A stretch of 64,000 bases of DNA, from positions 2,976,001 through 3,040,000 of the forward strand of contig OZ251997.1 of the NCBI GenBank assembly GCA_965247095.1. Direction: 5' to 3'. Position 1 is the stretch's first letter. The number at the start of each line of letters is the position of its first letter. This DNA comes from Candidatus Multivorans sp. (GTDB lineage Bacteria > Acidobacteriota > Thermoanaerobaculia > Multivoradales > Multivoraceae). Made by a program: the position numbers and the translations under genes. This document shows, in pieces, positions 7,778 to 54,819 of the stretch. The notes below the pieces were generated by a model. It had not been told where the DNA came from and made no database searches. It worked only from the letters and a program-made list of their open reading frames with translations.

Positions 7778-8217
7778 AGTTCGCGCTCGGCGCCGACCAC
7801 GCCGGAGTCGAGTTGAAGGACGAGTTGCGCGAGGTTCTGCGCGCCCGGGGGATCGAAGTCGTCGACTTCGGGGCCGACGGCTCGGCGCCCGTCGACTACC
7901 CCGACAAGGCAGCGGCGGTGGCGCGGGCCGTGGCGTCGGGAGCGGTCGACCGCGGCCTGCTGGTGTGCGGCACTGGAGTCGGCATGGCGATGTCGGCGAA
8001 CCGTTTCGCCGGGGTCCGGGCGGTCAATCCGAGCGACAGCTACACGACGCGGATGTCCCGGGCCCACAACGACGCCAACGTGCTGGCCCTCGGCGCCCGC
8101 GCGCTCGGCGCCGGTCAGGCGTCCGAACTGCTCGAGATGTTCCTCGACACGCCCTTCGACGGCGACCGCCACGTCGGGCGGGTGGCCAAGATCGACAGCG
8201 CCGCGGAGCGCGGCTAG
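7774..8217 (+). CDS. rpiB: Ribose-5-phosphate isomerase B
   Basis: GADHAG, DYPD, CGTGVGM, RAHNDANVL; ATGA overlap with purE. Confidence 0.95.
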   Translation: MKFALGADHAGVELKDELREVLRARGIEVVDFGADGSAPVDYPDKAAAVARAVASGAVDRGLLVCGTGVGMAMSANRFAGVRAVNPSDSYTTRMSRAHNDANVLALGARALGAGQASELLEMFLDTPFDGDRHVGRVAKIDSAAERG

Positions 8218-8267
8218 CGCGCCACACGGGTTCCCAGGTCAGATCGTTCTGCCGCGCAAGCCCCTAG
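8214..8267 (+). repeat. CTAG-bounded repeat, internally deleted copy (54 bp)
   Basis: CTAGCGCG joined to a near-identical copy of 16024-16073; both CTAGs are stop codons (rpiB, folC). Confidence 0.9.
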
Positions 8268-15056: not shown

Positions 15057-15159
15057 TATGCCGGTGAGGTTCGCGCACCGCACGGAATAGGTGCGGCCGG
15101 CAACAGGTTGGAACGGGGGCATCACCCTTTACACACCACCCGACAGAAGGGGGCCCCGG

Positions 15160-15900
15160 ATGAGCGACACGAGCCTTGAGGCGGCTGGATCCCCGGCCGA
15201 AGAGTCGGCGGCCGACGCTGTGCCCGCCACGTCAGCGGAGCATGGCCTGTTGACCTATGTGCAGGAGACGCGAAAAGACACCAGGACGTTCCGCTACTCA
15301 CTGGCACTGGCTTTGTTCTTCCACGCGATTCTCCTGCTCGTCAAGCTGCCCGATCTGTACGGCAAGGAGCAGGCGGCGCCACCGGCGCCGCCGAAAGTCT
15401 TCGTGGTGCAGCAGGTGCGTTTCAAGCCGCCGCCGCCGACGGAGGAGATTCGGATCCCGAAGCCGAAGTCGAAGAAGGTGCCGATCCCTGATCCGACGCC
15501 GGAGGAACCGGAGCCGATCCGGATTGACGAACCGAAGCTCTACCTTCCCGAGGTCGACGAGCTGAACTGGAAGATCGAGGTGCCCGCGCCTCCGCCTCTG
15601 GAGGAGCCCGGGCCGATCGAAGTGACCCGTGACGTCATCAAGCCGACGAAGACCCTCCACGTCGACCCGCAGTACACCGAGATCGCGCGCAAGGCGCGGA
15701 TTCAGGGCGCAGTCACTCTGCGGGCGACGATCGATCAGCAGGGTGACATCACCGATGTCGAGGTGCTGAGAGGTTTGCAGATGGGCCTCACCGAGGCCGC
15801 GGTGGCCGCGGTCAGGCAGTGGAAGTTCAAGCCGGCGACACTGAACGGAAGGCCGGTCGCTGTCTACTTCAACCTGACCGTCACCTTCCAGCTCCGGTAG
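15160..15900 (+). CDS. tonB: TonB family energy transducer 2 (close paralogue of 12916-13674)
   Basis: Shared blocks [58 protein letters not shown]. Confidence 0.9.
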   Translation: MSDTSLEAAGSPAEESAADAVPATSAEHGLLTYVQETRKDTRTFRYSLALALFFHAILLLVKLPDLYGKEQAAPPAPPKVFVVQQVRFKPPPPTEEIRIPKPKSKKVPIPDPTPEEPEPIRIDEPKLYLPEVDELNWKIEVPAPPPLEEPGPIEVTRDVIKPTKTLHVDPQYTEIARKARIQGAVTLRATIDQQGDITDVEVLRGLQMGLTEAAVAAVRQWKFKPATLNGRPVAVYFNLTVTFQLR

Positions 15901-15907
15901 GGGTCTG

Positions 15908-16073
15908 CTAGCGCGGCAGAACTCCCAGAGGCCGGCGCTTCGCGCCGGATGCGGGCAGGATGCCCGCGTGCCATCCGTGCGCCCGATGACGGGCGCACGG
16001 ACTGGTTCACGTGTGGCGCGGATCGCGCCACCCGGGTTCCCAGGTCAGATCGTTCTGCCGCGCAAGCCCCTAG
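15908..16073 (+). repeat. Full-length CTAG-bounded multi-hairpin element (166 bp)
   Basis: CTAG at both ends; 12-bp IR GCGCGGCAGAAC/GTTCTGCCGCGC; four internal hairpins at 15932-15948, 15951-15967, 15974-16001 and 16013-16031. Confidence 0.92.
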
Positions 16074-18304: not shown

Positions 18305-18622
18305 TCAGTCGCCGTCGGATGCCGCCCCGCGCGAACTGCGGCGCCGGGTCCTGCGGGTGGGATCGATTCCTACGGAGCGCAGGAAAGCGAGGTCGCGTCC
18401 ATTGATGCGGAACGTCGGCGGCGGAAGCGGCCGCCTGGTCGAAGAGCTCTCGTCGGCGTCGCTATCGTCATCGCTGCTTCTCTTGCAGTCGAGGAAGAGG
18501 TTGAGCGTGTAGCCTTCGCGCCGGATCGACTCGAGCCGATCGTGGACCTCGGGCGACTCGGCCATCGCCTCGCAGAGAGACCGGGTGAGTTCTTCGAGTA
18601 GTTGCTTGAGCCGGGGTTCCAT
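18305..18622 (-). CDS. Small hypothetical protein
   Basis: 105-aa ORF with protein-like composition (MEPRLKQLLEEL...DLAFLRSVGIDPTR) filling the gap between two genes. Confidence 0.75.
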   Translation of the reverse strand: MEPRLKQLLEELTRSLCEAMAESPEVHDRLESIRREGYTLNLFLDCKRSSDDDSDADESSSTRRPLPPPTFRINGRDLAFLRSVGIDPTRRTRRRSSRGAASDGD

Positions 18623-18704
18623 GGGCCGACGACCATTATCCCAGACCGCAGCCGGTAGCGACACTCCGGGTTCGCTACAGGGCGCTAAGGACACTTGGCG
18701 GCCG

Positions 18705-19679
18705 GTGCTCGACGCGCTGACCGGGGCGGGTTGGGCGCCGGTCTCGTTCCAGCCTGTGGCCGGCGACGTCTCCGCCCGGCGATACGGCCGGCTGCGTCTT
18801 GCGTCGGGCGAGCAGCGGGTCGTCTGCAGCTATCCCGACGACATGAAGGATGTGGCAGCGCGCTTTGTGGACGCTACCGAGCTGCTGGCTTCGGTCGCTG
18901 TGCCGACACCTAGGGTGGACCTGTACTCACTCGAGCATCCGGTCTGGGTTCTCCTGGAGGATCTCGGCCAGCGAACTCTGTTTGAGCACTGGAAGGGAGC
19001 GGGCAGCGACGCCGGGGTGAACCTGGACCGGCGACTGGCGGAAGCCAGGGAACTCATCGGGCGGATACAGCTCCTGCCGGCGGACAAGGTTCGGGCCCTG
19101 GGCTCTCCGCCGCTCGACCGGGCCCTCTTGATGGCTGAACTCGACCAGACCTGGGAACGTTTCCTCGAACCGCGAGGTCTGGTTGCGGACCTGGAGCTGG
19201 CCGAGCAGGTCCGTGCCGTATGCGCTGCCATCTGCGAACGGCTCGACTCGGCAACGAGCGTGCCGTGTCACCGCGACTTCATGGCCCGGAACCTGATGCT
19301 GCGCGCGCCGGCCGCGGTTTCGCCGGGAGGCGCCGATGAATTAGTCGTGATCGACCACCAGGATCTGCGCATGGGGCCGCCGTGCTATGACCTGGCCTCG
19401 CTCCTGAATGACACGTTGACGCTCTCGATCCGCAAGCGGCAGGAGCACCTGTCGGCCGTCCGGGAAGACGCTGACCGGATCGCTCAGTACCACGCGGCGA
19501 CGGCCCAGCGCACGCTCAAGATCGCGGGCACCTTCGCGTACTTCGCGACCGTCGGCAGCGGCCGCTATCTGCAGTTGATTCCACCGGCCCTGCGGAGGTT
19601 CCTGGATGCCCTGGATGCTCTTCCCGAAGGCCGCGAGCTGGCGCCCTGGTTGCGCAGGGCCTGGGCGTCGGTCACCTAG
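18705..19679 (+). CDS. Aminoglycoside phosphotransferase family kinase (AmgK-like)
   Basis: AGDVSARRY, LLEDLG, CHRDFMARNLM, IDHQDLRMGP, YDLASLL; start uncertain. Confidence 0.85.
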   Translation: MLDALTGAGWAPVSFQPVAGDVSARRYGRLRLASGEQRVVCSYPDDMKDVAARFVDATELLASVAVPTPRVDLYSLEHPVWVLLEDLGQRTLFEHWKGAGSDAGVNLDRRLAEARELIGRIQLLPADKVRALGSPPLDRALLMAELDQTWERFLEPRGLVADLELAEQVRAVCAAICERLDSATSVPCHRDFMARNLMLRAPAAVSPGGADELVVIDHQDLRMGPPCYDLASLLNDTLTLSIRKRQEHLSAVREDADRIAQYHAATAQRTLKIAGTFAYFATVGSGRYLQLIPPALRRFLDALDALPEGRELAPWLRRAWASVT

Positions 19680-19766
19680 CGCGGCAGAACTCCCCGAGGC
19701 CGGCGCTTCGCGCCGGATGCCGGCGGGGACGCCGGCGCACCCGGTTTCTGCCGCGCAATCGCCTAG
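19676..19766 (+). repeat. CTAG-bounded element, two-hairpin copy (91 bp)
   Basis: Same ends as the 15908 copy (11-bp IR; right end GCCGCGCA-N5-CTAG). Confidence 0.9.
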
Positions 19767-19804: not shown

Positions 19805-19975
19805 ATGCCGTCCCTTGGCATCCAAGAGCTACTCATCATCTTCGCCATCCTGATGGTCATCTTCGGTGGCAGCAAGCTGCCTCTCCTTGGCCGCGGCATG
19901 GGTCAGGGCATCCGGAACTTCAAGAAGGGCCTGCGCAGCGACGACTCCTCCGAACTGGAGGAAAAGCAGCCCTAG
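19805..19975 (+). CDS. tatA: Twin-arginine translocase TatA/E subunit (56 aa, missing from the ORF track)
   Basis: MPSLGIQELLIIFAILMVIFGGSKLPLLGRGMGQGIRNFKKG; RBS AGGAG. Confidence 0.93.
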   Translation: MPSLGIQELLIIFAILMVIFGGSKLPLLGRGMGQGIRNFKKGLRSDDSSELEEKQP

Positions 19976-31715: not shown

Positions 31716-32288
31716 ATGATCCACCCCCTCAAGAGACAGTCGCCTCCCGCTGCTTCCCGACCGGCGGACGTGGTCGTGCGGCCTGCGTCGCCGGCCGACG
31801 CTCCCTTCCTCCGGCGCTGGCGCTCCGAGCCGGCCGTGCGCCGCTTTCAGCCGCTGCACAACGTGTCCGTGTCCCGACTGCGAGCGGATCTGGCGTCGCA
31901 GCGTCCCCGGGATATCTACCGCGGCCGGGGCGACCGCTACACCTGGCTGGTCGAGTCCGATGGCGAGCGCACGGGCTGGATCACGTTGGCGATCGTGAAC
32001 TGGGAGCACGGGCTGAGCGAACTGGGGTACGCCCTGGCGACGCGCCACCATAGCCGCGGCACGATGACCGCAGCACTGGGACAGTTGCTGCCCGAGCTTC
32101 TGCTCCGCACGCCGGTGGAACGCATCGAGGCGAGGTGCGCGGTCGACAACGAAGCGTCACGGAAGGTGCTGGAGAAACTGGGGTTCGTTCACGAGGGCCT
32201 GCTCCGCTCGTACTTCGTTCTGGAGGGCCGCCGCACCGACCACCACTTGTACGCCCTTCTGCGCGAGGACTACATCCCAGGCCTCTAG
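31716..32288 (+). CDS. RimJ/RimL-type GNAT acetyltransferase
   Basis: ELGY...HSRG, NEASRKVLEKLGFVHEG. Confidence 0.88.
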   Translation: MIHPLKRQSPPAASRPADVVVRPASPADAPFLRRWRSEPAVRRFQPLHNVSVSRLRADLASQRPRDIYRGRGDRYTWLVESDGERTGWITLAIVNWEHGLSELGYALATRHHSRGTMTAALGQLLPELLLRTPVERIEARCAVDNEASRKVLEKLGFVHEGLLRSYFVLEGRRTDHHLYALLREDYIPGL

Positions 32289-32306
32289 AGCCGCGCAGCT
32301 TCCTAG
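32285..32306 (+). repeat. Minimal CTAG-bounded element (22 bp)
   Basis: CTAG-A-GCCGCGCA-GCTTC-CTAG matches the family right-end geometry; first CTAG is the GNAT stop. Confidence 0.5.
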
Positions 32307-36748: not shown

Positions 36749-36822
36749 CGGGGCGTGGCGCAGTCTGGTAGCGCACCTGCCTTGGGCGCAGGGGGTCCTC
36801 AGTTCAAATCTGGGCGCCCCGA
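36749..36822 (+). tRNA. tRNA-Pro (TGG), CCA not encoded
   Basis: Acceptor CGGGGCG/CGCCCCG; anticodon arm CCTGC-CTTGGGC-GCAGG; T loop TTCAAAT. Confidence 0.93.
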
Positions 36823-36865
36823 TATCGCTCGCATGCCCAGGCCTCGGCTACTCTGTCGCTTTCGC

Positions 36866-36942
36866 CTGCCTGTAGCTCAGATGGATAGAGCGGCGGCCTT
36901 CTAAGCCGCGGGTCGGGGGTTCGAGTCCCTCCAGGCAGGCCA
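36866..36942 (+). tRNA. tRNA-Arg (TCT)
   Basis: Acceptor CTGCCTG/CAGGCAG; anticodon arm GCGGC-CTTCTAA-GCCGC; CCA. Confidence 0.95.
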
Positions 36943-36972
36943 GATCGTTGAGAGTTTTCGGTCGGAATGTCT

Positions 36973-37049
36973 GGTGGGTGTAGCTCAACCGGTAGAGCAC
37001 TTGATTGTGGTTCAAGTGGTTGGGGGTTCAAGTCCCCTCACCCACCCCA
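36973..37049 (+). tRNA. tRNA-His (GTG)
   Basis: G-1:C73 pair; anticodon arm CTTGA-TTGTGGT-TCAAG; CCA. Confidence 0.95.
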
Positions 37050-37076
37050 TCCTCCTTTCCGCATCGTCCCGTTCGC

Positions 37077-37154
37077 GCGCCCGTAGCTCAGTCTGGATAG
37101 AGCGACGGCCTCCGGAGCCGTAGGTCAGGGGTTCGAATCCCTTCGGGCGCACCA
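37077..37154 (+). tRNA. tRNA-Arg (CCG)
   Basis: Acceptor GCGCCCG/CGGGCGC; anticodon arm ACGGC-CTCCGGA-GCCGT; CCA. Confidence 0.95.
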
Positions 37155-39173: not shown

Positions 39174-39901
39174 GCGAACGTCGGCAACGGCCCGTCCGGG
39201 CCGCGGCGCGCCGCGGCTCCGCGCCACTTCGGGGCGTCTCCTTCGACGCCACGGGCACGCTCTTCGTCTGCCCGCGCCGCGGTGAGATCTACGCCGAAGT
39301 CCTTGCCCGGCACGGTCTGCGTCTTGCCGCGGTCGAAATCGAGGGTGGCTTCCGGACCGCCTGGAGCGAACTCGACTGCCGGCTCGGACGCGGCGAGGAC
39401 CGCTACAGCAGCCATCCGGAGGGTGCCCGTGGCTTTTGGCGCGAGCTGCTGGAGCGGTCGTGCGCGCTGCTTGGGAAGGAAGACCCCGGTCCCTTTGCGG
39501 CCGCCGAGTTGTTTGCCCGGTTCGAACGCGCAGATGCCTGGGAGCTTCGCCCCGGCACCCGCAAGGTGCTGACCGAACTGCGACGCCGGGGTTTGCGGGT
39601 CGCCGTGACCAGCAACTGGGACCGGCGGCTGCCGCGTGTGCTGGCCAACCTCGGCCTGGGCGACGACATCGATGCCGTCGTGTGTTCGGAAGACGTGGGA
39701 TCGGCGAAGCCGGCCGAGGCGATCTTCCTTGCCGCCTGCCGGGAACTCGAGCTGGAACCGGCGTCGGTGCTCCACGTCGGCGACGCCAAGATCGAGGATC
39801 GCGAGGGGGCCGAGGCGGCAGGGCTGCCGGCATTGTGGCTGAATGCCGCCGAAGGCGACATCGGGACGCTTGAAGAGGTGCTGAGCTACGTACCGCGCTA
39901 G
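39170..39901 (+). CDS. HAD-superfamily hydrolase
   Basis: FDATGTL, TSNWD, KP...IF, HVGD....D. Confidence 0.88.
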   Translation: MSERRQRPVRAAARRGSAPLRGVSFDATGTLFVCPRRGEIYAEVLARHGLRLAAVEIEGGFRTAWSELDCRLGRGEDRYSSHPEGARGFWRELLERSCALLGKEDPGPFAAAELFARFERADAWELRPGTRKVLTELRRRGLRVAVTSNWDRRLPRVLANLGLGDDIDAVVCSEDVGSAKPAEAIFLAACRELELEPASVLHVGDAKIEDREGAEAAGLPALWLNAAEGDIGTLEEVLSYVPR

Positions 39902-40007
39902 CGCGCTCCTGGGCACCCGGGTGGCGCGATCCGCGCCAGCCGCGAACCACTCCGGGCGCCCGTCAGCGGGCGCGCGGATAGCACGCGGGCGTCTCGCCCG
40001 CATCCGG
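39898..40007 (-). repeat. Repeat copy: CTAGCGCG end joined to an inverted three-hairpin core
   Basis: Reverse complement of 39908-40007 aligns to 15945-16044 with a compensatory change in hairpin 1. Confidence 0.88.
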
Positions 40008-40043
40008 TAGTTTCTCAGTCTGAACTTGACGGAGGAGACCTCG

Positions 40044-41462
40044 ATGTCTGTGCGCCCGCTCTCGATCTCAGGTGCCGCCATGCTGTTGGTTGTCGCGGTT
40101 GCGGCTGCTACGGGCACCGACTCCACCTTCGCATGCGATGCCAGCGACGACCCGTTCTGTGCCGGTGCGATCGTGCCCGACCTTCCACCCTGGTCCGCGG
40201 TGTCGGCATCAACCGCTGGACCGCCGGAGGCACCGCCGTGGTGCGACGGCACCTGCGTCATCGACATCGCCTTCATCTACGCAGATGACGCCATCGGTCT
40301 GACACTTGCCGACTACGGCGGGGGCGGTAGCCTACGCCGACCCTACGGTCGGCATGACACGCTTGGGGGCCTGCGGGCCACCGTTCACCACGCCGCGGAC
40401 CTGGCGACGATGGCGTTCCGGCGAGCCCATCTTGACGCCCGATTGCGGGTAGTCGGTTTCCAGCGCGACCCGGCGCTGAACGGCATGGAGATCCGCGACG
40501 CGCTCTCGTTCACTCGGACACGAGCTGTGAGCCTTCGCCGCGAGTACGGCGCCGACCTCGTCTACGCCATCGTGAGGGATCGCGCCATGGCTTGCGGAAT
40601 CGCCCACTTGCGCCGTCCTGGCGTCTCGGCGGCGTCGGCGGCGCCGTTCGCGGTCGGCGCGTTGTCGTCGCCCTGCCTTGACGAGAGACCTGTGCTCCTG
40701 GCTCACGAGGTCGGACACAACCTGGGCCTGGTCCATGACCGGGCGAGCGAGCTGCTTGGTGCCGGAGTGAATACACCGTATGTGCCGTTCGGTCATGGGT
40801 TCCAGCACTCTGCCGTCGCTGAGGCCCGCTTCGAGTCGTCGATCATGGCTGCCGAGGGGCCGAACGTCGGCGCGTGGTTCTCGACCACGGAGTTGGTTCG
40901 AGGTCTCGTACTTGGCAACGCGGAGGAGAGCAACGCGGCCCGCGCACTGCGCTACACGCTTCCCGATACCGCCGACTACGTAGCGGCGCGCTCCGAAACG
41001 GATGAGGACGGGCCGCCATACGCATGCAGGAACGGCCCAACGGCTACCTGCTTGCAGGACTGGCGCTTCCGCGTCCAGGCGAAGGCCCTCGAGAGACCGG
41101 ACTTCGCGGGGCCGCTCGATGTCCTCGGTCTCGGTGACGCCGCGGCCCTCTTCTACTTCTACTCCGCGGACAACCCGGAGCTGCTGGTCAAGGTGCTCGA
41201 CGCCTGCTCGTACAACGGCCACTGGTGGGTGTACGGCTCGGCGGGGACCGATCAGCCGTACTTCATCAGGATTCAGGACTCGGCGCCTGGTGGCGAGTCC
41301 ATCATCTACAAGCACTCGGGAGGTACGGTCACCGGGTACTTCGAGCGATACGAAGAGCCGAGCGACGAGTTTCCGGGCGGACGGATCTATGACGTGCCGA
41401 CTGGATACACGACGGCCAAGGGCGTGATTACCGACATCCAGGCGTTCCGCTGCGAGCCGTGA
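40044..41462 (+). CDS. Secreted metzincin (M12/reprolysin-like) zinc peptidase with Cys-containing C-terminal domain
   Basis: GGAGGAG RBS, signal peptide, HEVGHNLGLVH, Met-turn SIMA. Confidence 0.85.
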   Translation: MSVRPLSISGAAMLLVVAVAAATGTDSTFACDASDDPFCAGAIVPDLPPWSAVSASTAGPPEAPPWCDGTCVIDIAFIYADDAIGLTLADYGGGGSLRRPYGRHDTLGGLRATVHHAADLATMAFRRAHLDARLRVVGFQRDPALNGMEIRDALSFTRTRAVSLRREYGADLVYAIVRDRAMACGIAHLRRPGVSAASAAPFAVGALSSPCLDERPVLLAHEVGHNLGLVHDRASELLGAGVNTPYVPFGHGFQHSAVAEARFESSIMAAEGPNVGAWFSTTELVRGLVLGNAEESNAARALRYTLPDTADYVAARSETDEDGPPYACRNGPTATCLQDWRFRVQAKALERPDFAGPLDVLGLGDAAALFYFYSADNPELLVKVLDACSYNGHWWVYGSAGTDQPYFIRIQDSAPGGESIIYKHSGGTVTGYFERYEEPSDEFPGGRIYDVPTGYTTAKGVITDIQAFRCEP

Positions 41463-41531
41463 CTCGGCAGTCGGTCGATCGGGTTCGAGCCGCGGTCGAC
41501 TGCTACACTGCCCCATGGCGGAGAGTGCGCA

Positions 41532-45602: not shown

Positions 45603-45742
45603 CCTGGGAACCCGGCTGGCGCGGAATCGCGCCAGCCGTGAACCACTCCATGCGCCCGTCATCGGGCGCATGGATGGCACGCGGGCATCCTGCCCGCATC
45701 CGGCGCGCAGCGCCGGCTCCGTCTCCGCGCTCCCCTCGCTAG
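45603..45742 (-). repeat. Four-hairpin repeat copy between convergent genes
   Basis: Reverse complement aligns to 15931-16044 with compensatory pairs; begins CTAGCG, which is the sugar-transferase stop. Confidence 0.9.
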
Positions 45743-54729: not shown

Positions 54730-54819
54730 GGAGGGGTGGCTGAGTGGTCGAAAGCACCGGTCTTGAAAACCGGCGTGGGTCAACGCCCACCGTGGGTTCG
54801 AATCCCACCCCCTCCGCCA
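54730..54819 (+). tRNA. tRNA-Ser (TGA)
   Basis: Acceptor GGAGGGG/CCCCTCC; anticodon arm CCGGT-CTTGAAA-ACCGG; long variable arm; G73-CCA. Confidence 0.95.

Follow-up and report, generated by a model that had tools for sequence, protein, structure and literature searches.

A mobile, gene-less repeat family with REP-type hairpin cargo inserts at CTAG in the genus Candidatus Multivorans

The genome of Candidatus Multivorans sp. (G000; closed, 4.62 Mb, 67.7% G+C) carries a family of short intergenic repeats bounded by the tetranucleotide CTAG, and a full 166-bp copy lies at positions 15908-16073 of the 64,000-nt stretch of DNA analyzed here (C1:2976001-3040000; hereafter the window). These repeats are a real and mobile family in the genus, and they hold no genes. 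We think it probable that the family is a miniature inverted-repeat transposable element (MITE) that inserts at CTAG with duplication of either TA or CTAG, has had its interior filled with hairpins of the repetitive extragenic palindromic (REP) type, and is moved in trans by a DDE transposase, most likely one of the IS630/Tc1 type. The family is apparently undescribed and of an ordinary kind, with three modest peculiarities: its ends are lopsided, it carries REP cargo, and its copies are targeted by IS110-family elements. A literature search (supplements not covered) returned 0 papers for ‘Candidatus Multivorans’ and no description of this MITE family.

Comparisons were made within a genus set of 42 genomes that includes G000, the GatB proteins of the 41 others being 80-96% identical to that of G000. 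The one close named relative, a metagenome-assembled genome called Candidatus Multivorans sp., has a GatB 82% identical to that of G000, and the next-best matches are from Thermoanaerobaculia (Acidobacteriota). Among them, G016 is syntenic with G000 at ~90% nucleotide identity, and G051 is 96-98% identical to it.

Anatomy and abundance of the family

The full terminal repeat of the family is GGAGCTTGCGCGGCAGAAC, and the two arms of a copy pair with each other. When arms were paired with one mismatch at most, ~40 two-armed copies of 60-166 bp were called in G000; genome-wide counts of the component motifs are 31 for the right end, 21 for CTAGCGCGGCAGAA and 62 for the exact 11-nt core of the arm, i.e., of the inverted repeat (IR). 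All copies have 12-nt arms, in keeping with the terminal IRs of a MITE. They are also small, lack coding capacity and show only hairpins in their folds, which is again typical of MITEs. Distances from core to core fall into classes of 40-41 bp (5 copies), 53-58 bp (3), 78-86 bp (15) and 152-154 bp (15).

Two types of end were distinguished. A long end consists of CTAG, 6 nt (consensus GAGCTT) and the arm, while in a short end CTA leads directly into the arm. The end on the CTCCC side is short in ~19 copies and long in ~5, and thus usually lacks the outer 7 nt; the other end is long in ~24 copies and short in 2, and the same polarity is seen in G016. In two copies (215013-215185 and 3631780-3631953) both ends are of the long type, which gives them a perfect terminal repeat of 19 nt. 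Scanning with the 20-nt long end as query (up to 3 mismatches, reversed sequence as control) gave 84 matches in G000 against 4 for the control. The long end is present in 41 of the 42 genus genomes, with 0-108 matches per genome (0-9 for controls). The 166-bp copy used as a query matched 17 of 18 congeners drawn; 12 genomes from other genera of the order gave one weak match (E 7e-4).

In DNA folds the arms pair to form the closing stem of a multi-branch loop that contains two to four hairpins. The 166-bp copy folds into an outer stem and four hairpins (-66.3 kcal/mol, z -8.5), and a 91-bp copy at 19676-19766 of the window also folds stably (z -4.7). Minimal copies have ~24 nt between the arms, and larger ones have extra hairpins inserted between GCCGGCGC and ACCC. 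The size series from 60 to 166 bp thus arises because the interior is filled stepwise with hairpin modules.

The 166-bp copy (15908-16073, plus strand) begins with a short end (CTAG 15908-15911) that runs into the left arm (15911-15922), continues through hairpin modules A (15932-15948), B (15950-15968), C (15974-16001) and D (16013-16031) to the right arm (16052-16063), and terminates in a 6-nt extension, AAGCCC (16064-16069), and CTAG (16070-16073). The 91-bp copy, on the same strand, likewise has a short end followed by an arm (19679-19689), module A and one other hairpin, the second arm (19746-19756), the extension AATCGC and CTAG (19763-19766). In both, the IR starts inside the left CTAG and stops 6 nt before the right one, as the initial annotation described for the family as a whole; at 2682-2742, by contrast, it lies 6 nt in at both ends. 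The latter copy, of 61 bp and unassigned to a strand, represents a small symmetric subfamily with two long ends (CTAG-CAGCGT-arm and arm-ACGCTC-CTAG), a degenerate right arm and no hairpin modules. It folds weakly (z -1.4), sits between two convergent genes and has ~10 relatives of its subfamily in the genome.

Two further members in the window, both on the plus strand, are reduced. In the copy at 8214-8267, a CGCG microhomology marks the junction between the first 8 nt of a short end and the tail of module D, after which come the right arm, extension and CTAG; compared with full copies, 112 nt between CGCG microhomologies have been lost. At 32285-32306 only a 22-bp remnant is left (CTAG, A, the last 7 nt of the arm, the extension AGCTTC and CTAG); in G016 this site is occupied by a 68-bp family member.

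All seven loci initially grouped as related are present in the window, but the group is heterogeneous and mixes two repeat populations. CTAG ends and the arm GCGCGGCAGAA are found at five of the loci. The remaining two, 39898-40007 (modules D, C and B reversed; no arm within 2 mismatches) and 45603-45742 (modules D, C, B and A reversed), both on the minus strand, are clusters of hairpin modules without arms, and we rejected them as members of the armed family. The CTAG adjoining each is either older sequence or the stop codon of a neighbor: CTAGCGC at 39898 is also found in G016, there without the cluster, and the right-hand CTAG of 45603-45742 is the stop codon of the minus-strand neighbor and pre-exists in G016, where 11 nt stand in place of the cluster (22 nt in G010). 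Significance of the window motifs was judged from expected counts and 100 shuffles. The proposed right end, GCCGCGCA-N5-CTAG, does recur five times, against 0.04 expected, and none of the 100 shuffles reached five. The proposed left motif does not mark the family: the 8-mer CTAGCGCG has 5 matches against 3.8 expected, 35 of the 100 shuffles reached 5, and one of the matches (39898) is the pre-existing sequence shared with G016. With its count at chance level, this motif was dropped as a marker.

Insertion at CTAG and the ends of genes

Occupied sites have CTAG on both sides and empty orthologous sites in relatives have one CTAG, as the initial annotation anticipated. The cleanest case is 867455-867621, where G016 reads GCGG CTAG CCGCG without interruption and G000 has CTAG, 159 nt and CTAG. 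Single CTAGs were also found in G016 at two other sites occupied in G000 (2911265 and 4347371), in G051 at window position 8214, where the one CTAG is common to two convergent stop codons, and in G014 at window position 19676. The target-site duplication of a MITE is thus seen at 867455 (against G016), at 8214 (against G051) and, in the other direction, at a G016 locus (L108) that is empty in G000. Many dispersed copies show insertion polymorphism among relatives, which is a further property of MITEs. When 20 G016 loci were mapped back onto G000, 7 were absent, 2 were occupied in both genomes, 4 held unrelated or remnant filler and 7 were not resolved. Three other candidate sites for the comparison with G016 (861111, 2892130 and 4354730) were set aside, their flanks being rearranged or inverted.

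The site at 19676, at the stop codon of a gene encoding an APH-family kinase, is in a different state in almost every species compared. G000 has the 91-bp copy, G051 another family member, G048 a reversed copy with two short ends and G010 an arm-only minimal copy; G014 has one CTAG, and G016 has nothing there (GGG). In G044 and G052 there are 17-nt remnants, bounded by CTAG and CTAG in the former and by CTGG and CTAG in the latter. At the site of the 166-bp copy, G051 has an identical copy, and G048 and G049 have none. The corresponding tonB-gatB site in G016 is uninformative because the TonB_C gene (15091-15900) is also missing there. This gene is likewise missing at the locus in G010, where only 2 nt separate the two convergent neighbors; G048, G049, G044 and G052 have the gene, and G051 has lost ~490 nt of it.

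Remnants lying between two CTAG-type words were found in five cases, namely window position 32285, the 19676 site in G044 and G052, and the 2682 site in G016 (CTAG-AC-CTAG) and G044 (CTAG-CCAGCTCC-CTGG). One of the two words has mutated to CTGG in 2 of the 5.

Outside CTAG, the information in the flanks is at most 0.48 bit (28 short and 43 long ends, n = 71). CTAG itself is rare in G000 (2091 sites, observed/expected 0.34). TAG is the stop codon of 39% of gene-like open reading frames (ORFs), as called by a crude gene test. The TAG within the terminal CTAG is the stop codon of an abutting gene-like ORF at 30 of 73 ends; the background for the 2091 CTAG sites of the genome is 11% in each orientation. 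The 30 ends comprise 13 short and 17 long ones, so the gene can lie on either side of the element. Within the window this holds for gatB, on the minus strand, with its stop codon read from CTA at 16070-16072, for the kinase ORF (18585-19679), which stops at the TAG at 19677-19679 of the 91-bp copy, and for the neighbors of 8214; in G048 and G049, which lack the 166-bp copy, gatB stops with TAA. Since a TAG stop is rebuilt when an element enters CTAG, such insertions are harmless.

Because the target is palindromic and the ends start with G and finish with C, duplication of TA and duplication of CTAG give the same sequence. In three copies the CTAG of one end is paired with CTAC or CTAA at the opposite end, a pattern that fits TA duplication and point mutation alike. 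As a separate observation, CTAG-depleted G000 has a Vsr-like (very-short-patch repair) gene at C1:2495401-2495610, and the CTAGG or CCTAG of intact element ends is replaced in many decayed ones by CCAGG or CCTGG, a change that Vsr-type repair would favor.

Hairpin cargo, IS110-family elements and alternative explanations

The interior of the element is a cargo of REP-type hairpins drawn from a separate and far larger repeat population that is associated with a REP-associated tyrosine transposase (RAYT). A BLAST search of G000 with the 166-bp copy returned 288 matches, of which 16 span both ends. Clusters of interior modules without arms occur at ~200 places, as C+D (77), B-to-D (57) and A+B (65). 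The single RAYT-like gene of the genome, which is also its only Y1 transposase gene, is flanked on both sides by inverted arrays of modules B, C and D, and it is these modules, not the arms, that have the inverted, RAYT-flanking arrangement of REP sequences. Its product matches Pfam Y1_Tnp (E 4.5e-8) and falls just below the cut-off of the NCBIfam model for REP-associated tyrosine transposases (REP_Tyr_transpos; 79.8 bits, cut-off 80); its only relative in PDB is 4ER8 (TnpArep). The free modules and the arm-less arrays beside the RAYT gene identify the interior as REP-type cargo. The RAYT segment (C1:2898172-2898813) is inverted in G016 (C1:2226064-2227048) between the flanking inverted REP arrays, with a protein that is 99% identical.

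A REP/RAYT origin, which the initial annotation considered, accordingly holds for the modules and does not extend to the arms. One could still regard the whole repeat as a REPIN-like hairpin doublet that the RAYT, a Y1/HUH enzyme, moves as single-stranded DNA, one CTAG being the target word and the other belonging to the element. The genome does have one RAYT-like gene, related to TnpArep, with the element's own interior modules as its flanking repeats; the element folds into a long hairpin; and HUH elements, with asymmetric ends and no duplication, would also leave one CTAG at empty sites. We nevertheless consider this explanation unlikely. With up to 2 mismatches allowed, the surroundings of the RAYT gene contain no arm except for one isolated match, and RAYT homologues are found in 25 of the 42 genomes (by a single protein query) as against 41 with arms, so that the two do not co-occur; the same query found no homologue in the arm-rich genomes G052, G043 and G049 (108, 76 and 66 arm matches). 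Minimal copies without modules exist and are polymorphic (G016 loci L107 and L108), and the deletion remnants keep both CTAGs. Armed copies show no replication-strand bias (24 co-oriented, 25 anti-oriented), although this test, tallied by hand on replichores taken from GC skew, is uninformative; the strand tallies of the free modules are 36/41, 20/37 and 27/38. The sign of the GC skew switches near 1.1 Mb and 2.5 Mb in G000, which would give very unequal replichores of ~3.2 and 1.4 Mb. Less probable again is that the repeat is no transposon, and is instead a hairpin signal of the host, a terminator or stabilizer placed after stop codons, kept by selection and spread by recombination. Copies do lie at gene ends, often between convergent genes, their folds are very stable, and the same sites are occupied in several species. 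Against this, genomes 90-98% alike differ by presence and absence at exact CTAG boundaries, distinct family members, lying in either orientation, can occupy one and the same site, the gene can be at the short or the long end, copy number runs from 0 to 108 within one genus, and an Rfam scan returned only tRNAs at the gathering threshold, with one chance match on the element (E 0.54).

IS110-family elements bear on the lopsided ends. The initial annotation pointed to the IS1111 group of this family, in which unequally offset sub-terminal repeats are a hallmark, and in some respects the lead is apt. The IR of 11-12 bp and extensions readable as 7 nt (GGAGCTT) and 3 nt (TAG) agree with the 11-13-bp repeats and the 7- and 3-nt extensions given for IS1111 members in PMC11187229, and the IS1111 geometry is present as GGAGCTT and arm at one side, arm and TAG at the other. 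In G000, an IS110-family element (C1:1057328-1058970, 446-aa transposase) and a 59-nt non-autonomous derivative (TTGCATGGAACAA...GACTCGAC; 32 copies, e.g., C1:296188-296246) are found within or next to the long end. Their shared insertion site is AAG-CT-CCTAG, with CT at each junction, and some insertions form tandem arrays; this word corresponds to the long end of the MITE, such ends account for ~half of the insertion loci, and TCCTAG follows 20 of the 32 small derivatives. In G052, four pairs of arms 1776 bp apart enclose a second IS110-family element with a 460-aa transposase (C1:1412389-1414175 and three other places, L187-L190), which is missing from G000. The proposed search for a copy enclosing or abutting a transposase thus gave none enclosed in G000, IS110-family elements abutting copies in G000, and an IS110-family element enclosed in G052.

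These IS110-family elements are best read as secondary insertions that target the MITE, and not as its parents. Among the four G052 units the 1692-nt interiors differ at 1-3 bases (99.8-99.9% alike), whereas similarity of the surrounding MITE parts is only 92-96%; on this contrast we rejected the G052 unit as the autonomous parent. It suggests, together with the lack of a conserved target beyond CTAG, that IS110-family elements home to the MITE. All four units occupy one internal site, GGCGCA-CC-CAGT, which fits separate insertions into different MITE copies. That the repeat is itself a non-autonomous IS1111-type derivative, moved by a DEDD transposase with a guide RNA, therefore seems improbable to us. 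The G052 protein has no tblastn match in G000, where copies are still polymorphic relative to G016 and G051, and no arm-bounded unit with a DEDD transposase was found in G000. Nothing outside CTAG is conserved in the 71 flanks, whereas IS110 and IS1111 elements choose longer, specific targets; neither a long guide-chosen target nor a DEDD transposase forming one unit with the arms was seen. The G052 unit has its long non-coding region upstream of the transposase gene and the 7-nt side downstream, both reversed relative to IS1111, and the deletion remnants keep two CTAG-type words. In a variant of this reading, the lopsided ends would be functional and the repeat an IS1111-type non-autonomous element with its RNA-guided target shrunk to CTAG, which would be left on both sides. 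The divergence of interior and ends in G052 and the remnants with two CTAGs make this unlikely; if true, an RNA-guided recombinase would here be operating on a target of 4 nt.

The putative mobilizing enzyme

The proposal of a non-autonomous element mobilized in trans agrees with the single-CTAG empty sites in relatives, the gene-less copies and the finding that no copy in G000 encloses a transposase. The initial annotation further held that the element fits no known class cleanly. This view is not supported: insertion with CTAG on both sides is the signature of IS630-type elements and of IS5-derived MITEs, and the sole misfit is the end that is 7 nt shorter. A DDE transposase is suggested by the duplication of a short palindrome and by deletion remnants that keep both CTAG-type words. 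IS630/Tc1 is the most likely type, given that CTAG is also the site used by two IS630 families of G000. These families (F5, C1:1992018-1993242; F6, C1:1837789-1838931; 5 copies each in G000) are CTAG-bounded and were assigned to IS630 by NCBIfam and by Pfam DDE_3 (both) and HTH domains (F6). One IS630 copy in G043 sits in the terminal CTAG of a MITE copy.

The element enters the rare palindrome CTAG, which then stands on both sides through duplication of TA or of CTAG, and a TAG stop codon within the target is rebuilt in the process. We envisage that a DDE transposase acting in trans would carry out this movement by cut and paste. The interior has gained stepwise its REP-type modules, which belong to the RAYT-associated population, and copies decay by internal deletion to two CTAGs a few bases apart, as in the remnants described above.

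Several observations weigh against this account. Comparing the insertion sequences of G000 with the element gave none with element-like ends (best z 2.3 over 60 comparisons; z of at most 1.35 for F5 and F6), and in 12 genomes none of 30 DDE_3 loci has arms in the position that would bound an insertion sequence, four of them having weak or adjacent arm-like matches. Arms occur without DDE_3 in 30 of the 42 genus genomes. DDE_3 is found in all 8 genomes with at least 54 arm matches and in 4 of the 34 others; by GatB identity, however, these 8 amount to G000 together with the 7 genomes nearest to it (93-96%), so the co-occurrence reflects one clade and is not independent support. Tc1/IS630 enzymes would not be expected to act on an end shortened by 7 nt, but ~28 different places have a short end directly beside CTAG. 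The 7 G016 loci that are empty in G000 have CTAG twice, GTAG once, TTAG once and another word three times, so that 3 of the 7 are not NTAG. At the 2682 site of G016, both CTAGs serve convergent genes as stop codons and are possibly ancestral, and the ambiguity between TA and CTAG duplication counts on this side as well.

Pairs of arms at kilobase scale were examined in G000, G016 and G052 (in the latter two through a listing of exact arms). No cognate autonomous insertion sequence with the same ends was found in G000 or G016, and the pairs in G052 enclose the IS110-family element judged secondary. With no insertion sequence of matching ends in G000 and none among the 30 DDE_3 loci, the mobilizer is one that we infer only.

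Five insertion sequence families of G000 have CTAG at both termini, namely the two IS630 families, two of IS1634 (ISa, 68946-70921; F8, 985666-987612) and an untyped 2054-bp element (1821088-1823127). F5, F6, ISa, F8 and 11 other G000 families were rejected as parents for want of similarity at the ends.

Other features of the window

The window holds no multi-copy insertion sequence of at least 700 bp, a search that was not an exhaustive check for transposases there. Its tRNA genes, as found by Rfam, form a cluster of four at 36749-37151 and another at 54730-54816. A segment of 1.59 kb (39905-41496), with the arm-less REP cluster 39898-40007 at its start, is present in G000 and not in G016 or G010; it includes a 478-aa ORF (40026-41462) with Reprolysin-like metallopeptidase domains. 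At the 8214 site, an unrelated palindromic element (arms CACCCGCC...GGGGTCA) lies between the convergent genes, as a half copy in G016 (L101, 8140-8190) and a full copy in G010 (L102, 8325-8510).

In four public sequencing runs, where assembled contigs ended at repeats, none of the 15 joints listed skips an element, a result that is uninformative on excision, circles and polymorphism within populations. Contigs at least 99% alike to parts of the stretch were found in one run (X2) labeled as a sponge metagenome, and contigs of two other runs (X17 and X1) have an 18-nt insertion at window position 19939.

Significance and comparison with known systems

These results are of use mainly in annotating the genomes of an uncultured acidobacterial genus and in understanding how they evolve. 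Together, the family, its hairpin cargo and the homing IS110-family elements explain most of the odd intergenic DNA in these genomes and account for the many genes whose ends coincide with an element. The rare CTAG bounds, or is needed next to the insertion point of, at least three kinds of mobile DNA in G000 (IS630, the MITE and the IS110 mini-elements). The spread of an end shorter by 7 nt is a small puzzle for end recognition by the transposase; the general picture of how MITEs work is unchanged.

RUP of Streptococcus pneumoniae is a MITE attributed to IS630-Spn1. The present family resembles such IS630/Tc1-mariner MITEs in being small and gene-less, with terminal inverted repeats and insertion at CTAG that leaves CTAG at both ends, and IS630 transposases with the same target are encoded in the same genome. 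It differs in that no IS630 member with matching ends was found here, one end is 7 nt shorter in most copies and the REP cargo is variable. TA duplication by the IS630 family is described in PMC2170065, where the title of a reference names the TA in CTAG as an IS630 target. MITEPsy1 of Pseudomonas syringae, a ~100-nt element with 18-nt terminal repeats that is thought to derive from ISPsy2 (IS5 family) and duplicates CTAG (PMC3189936), likewise has CTAG on both sides after insertion. MITEPsy1 has a recognizable parent and, in that account, no hairpin cargo; for the present family no IS5-type parent was found, and 4-nt and 2-nt duplications are inseparable.

The interior modules resemble REP sequences, bacterial interspersed mosaic elements (BIMEs) and REPINs with their RAYT (TnpA-REP; PDB 4ER8) in forming hundreds of GC-rich hairpins, mosaic clusters and inverted arrays that flank the RAYT gene. 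The arms and CTAG ends depart from that system: the RAYT locus lacks them, and they are plentiful in genomes that gave no match to this RAYT. With IS1111 the family shares the length of the sub-terminal repeats and the asymmetric 7- and 3-nt extensions; it differs in that G000 copies hold no transposase, the target is only 4 nt and the genes enclosed in G052 are best taken for secondary insertions. The closest parallel to the layered arrangement is offered by QMITE2 of Coxiella burnetii, a MITE with a REP-type palindrome inside that is an insertion hot-spot for IS1111, an IS110-family element, and lies mostly at gene 3' ends or in intergenic DNA (PMC5896051). QMITE2 has variable direct repeats of 7-11 nt and no CTAG target. 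In Candidatus Multivorans, two IS110-family elements enter the MITE at two different places, one at the long terminus (G000) and the other in the interior beside an arm (G052).

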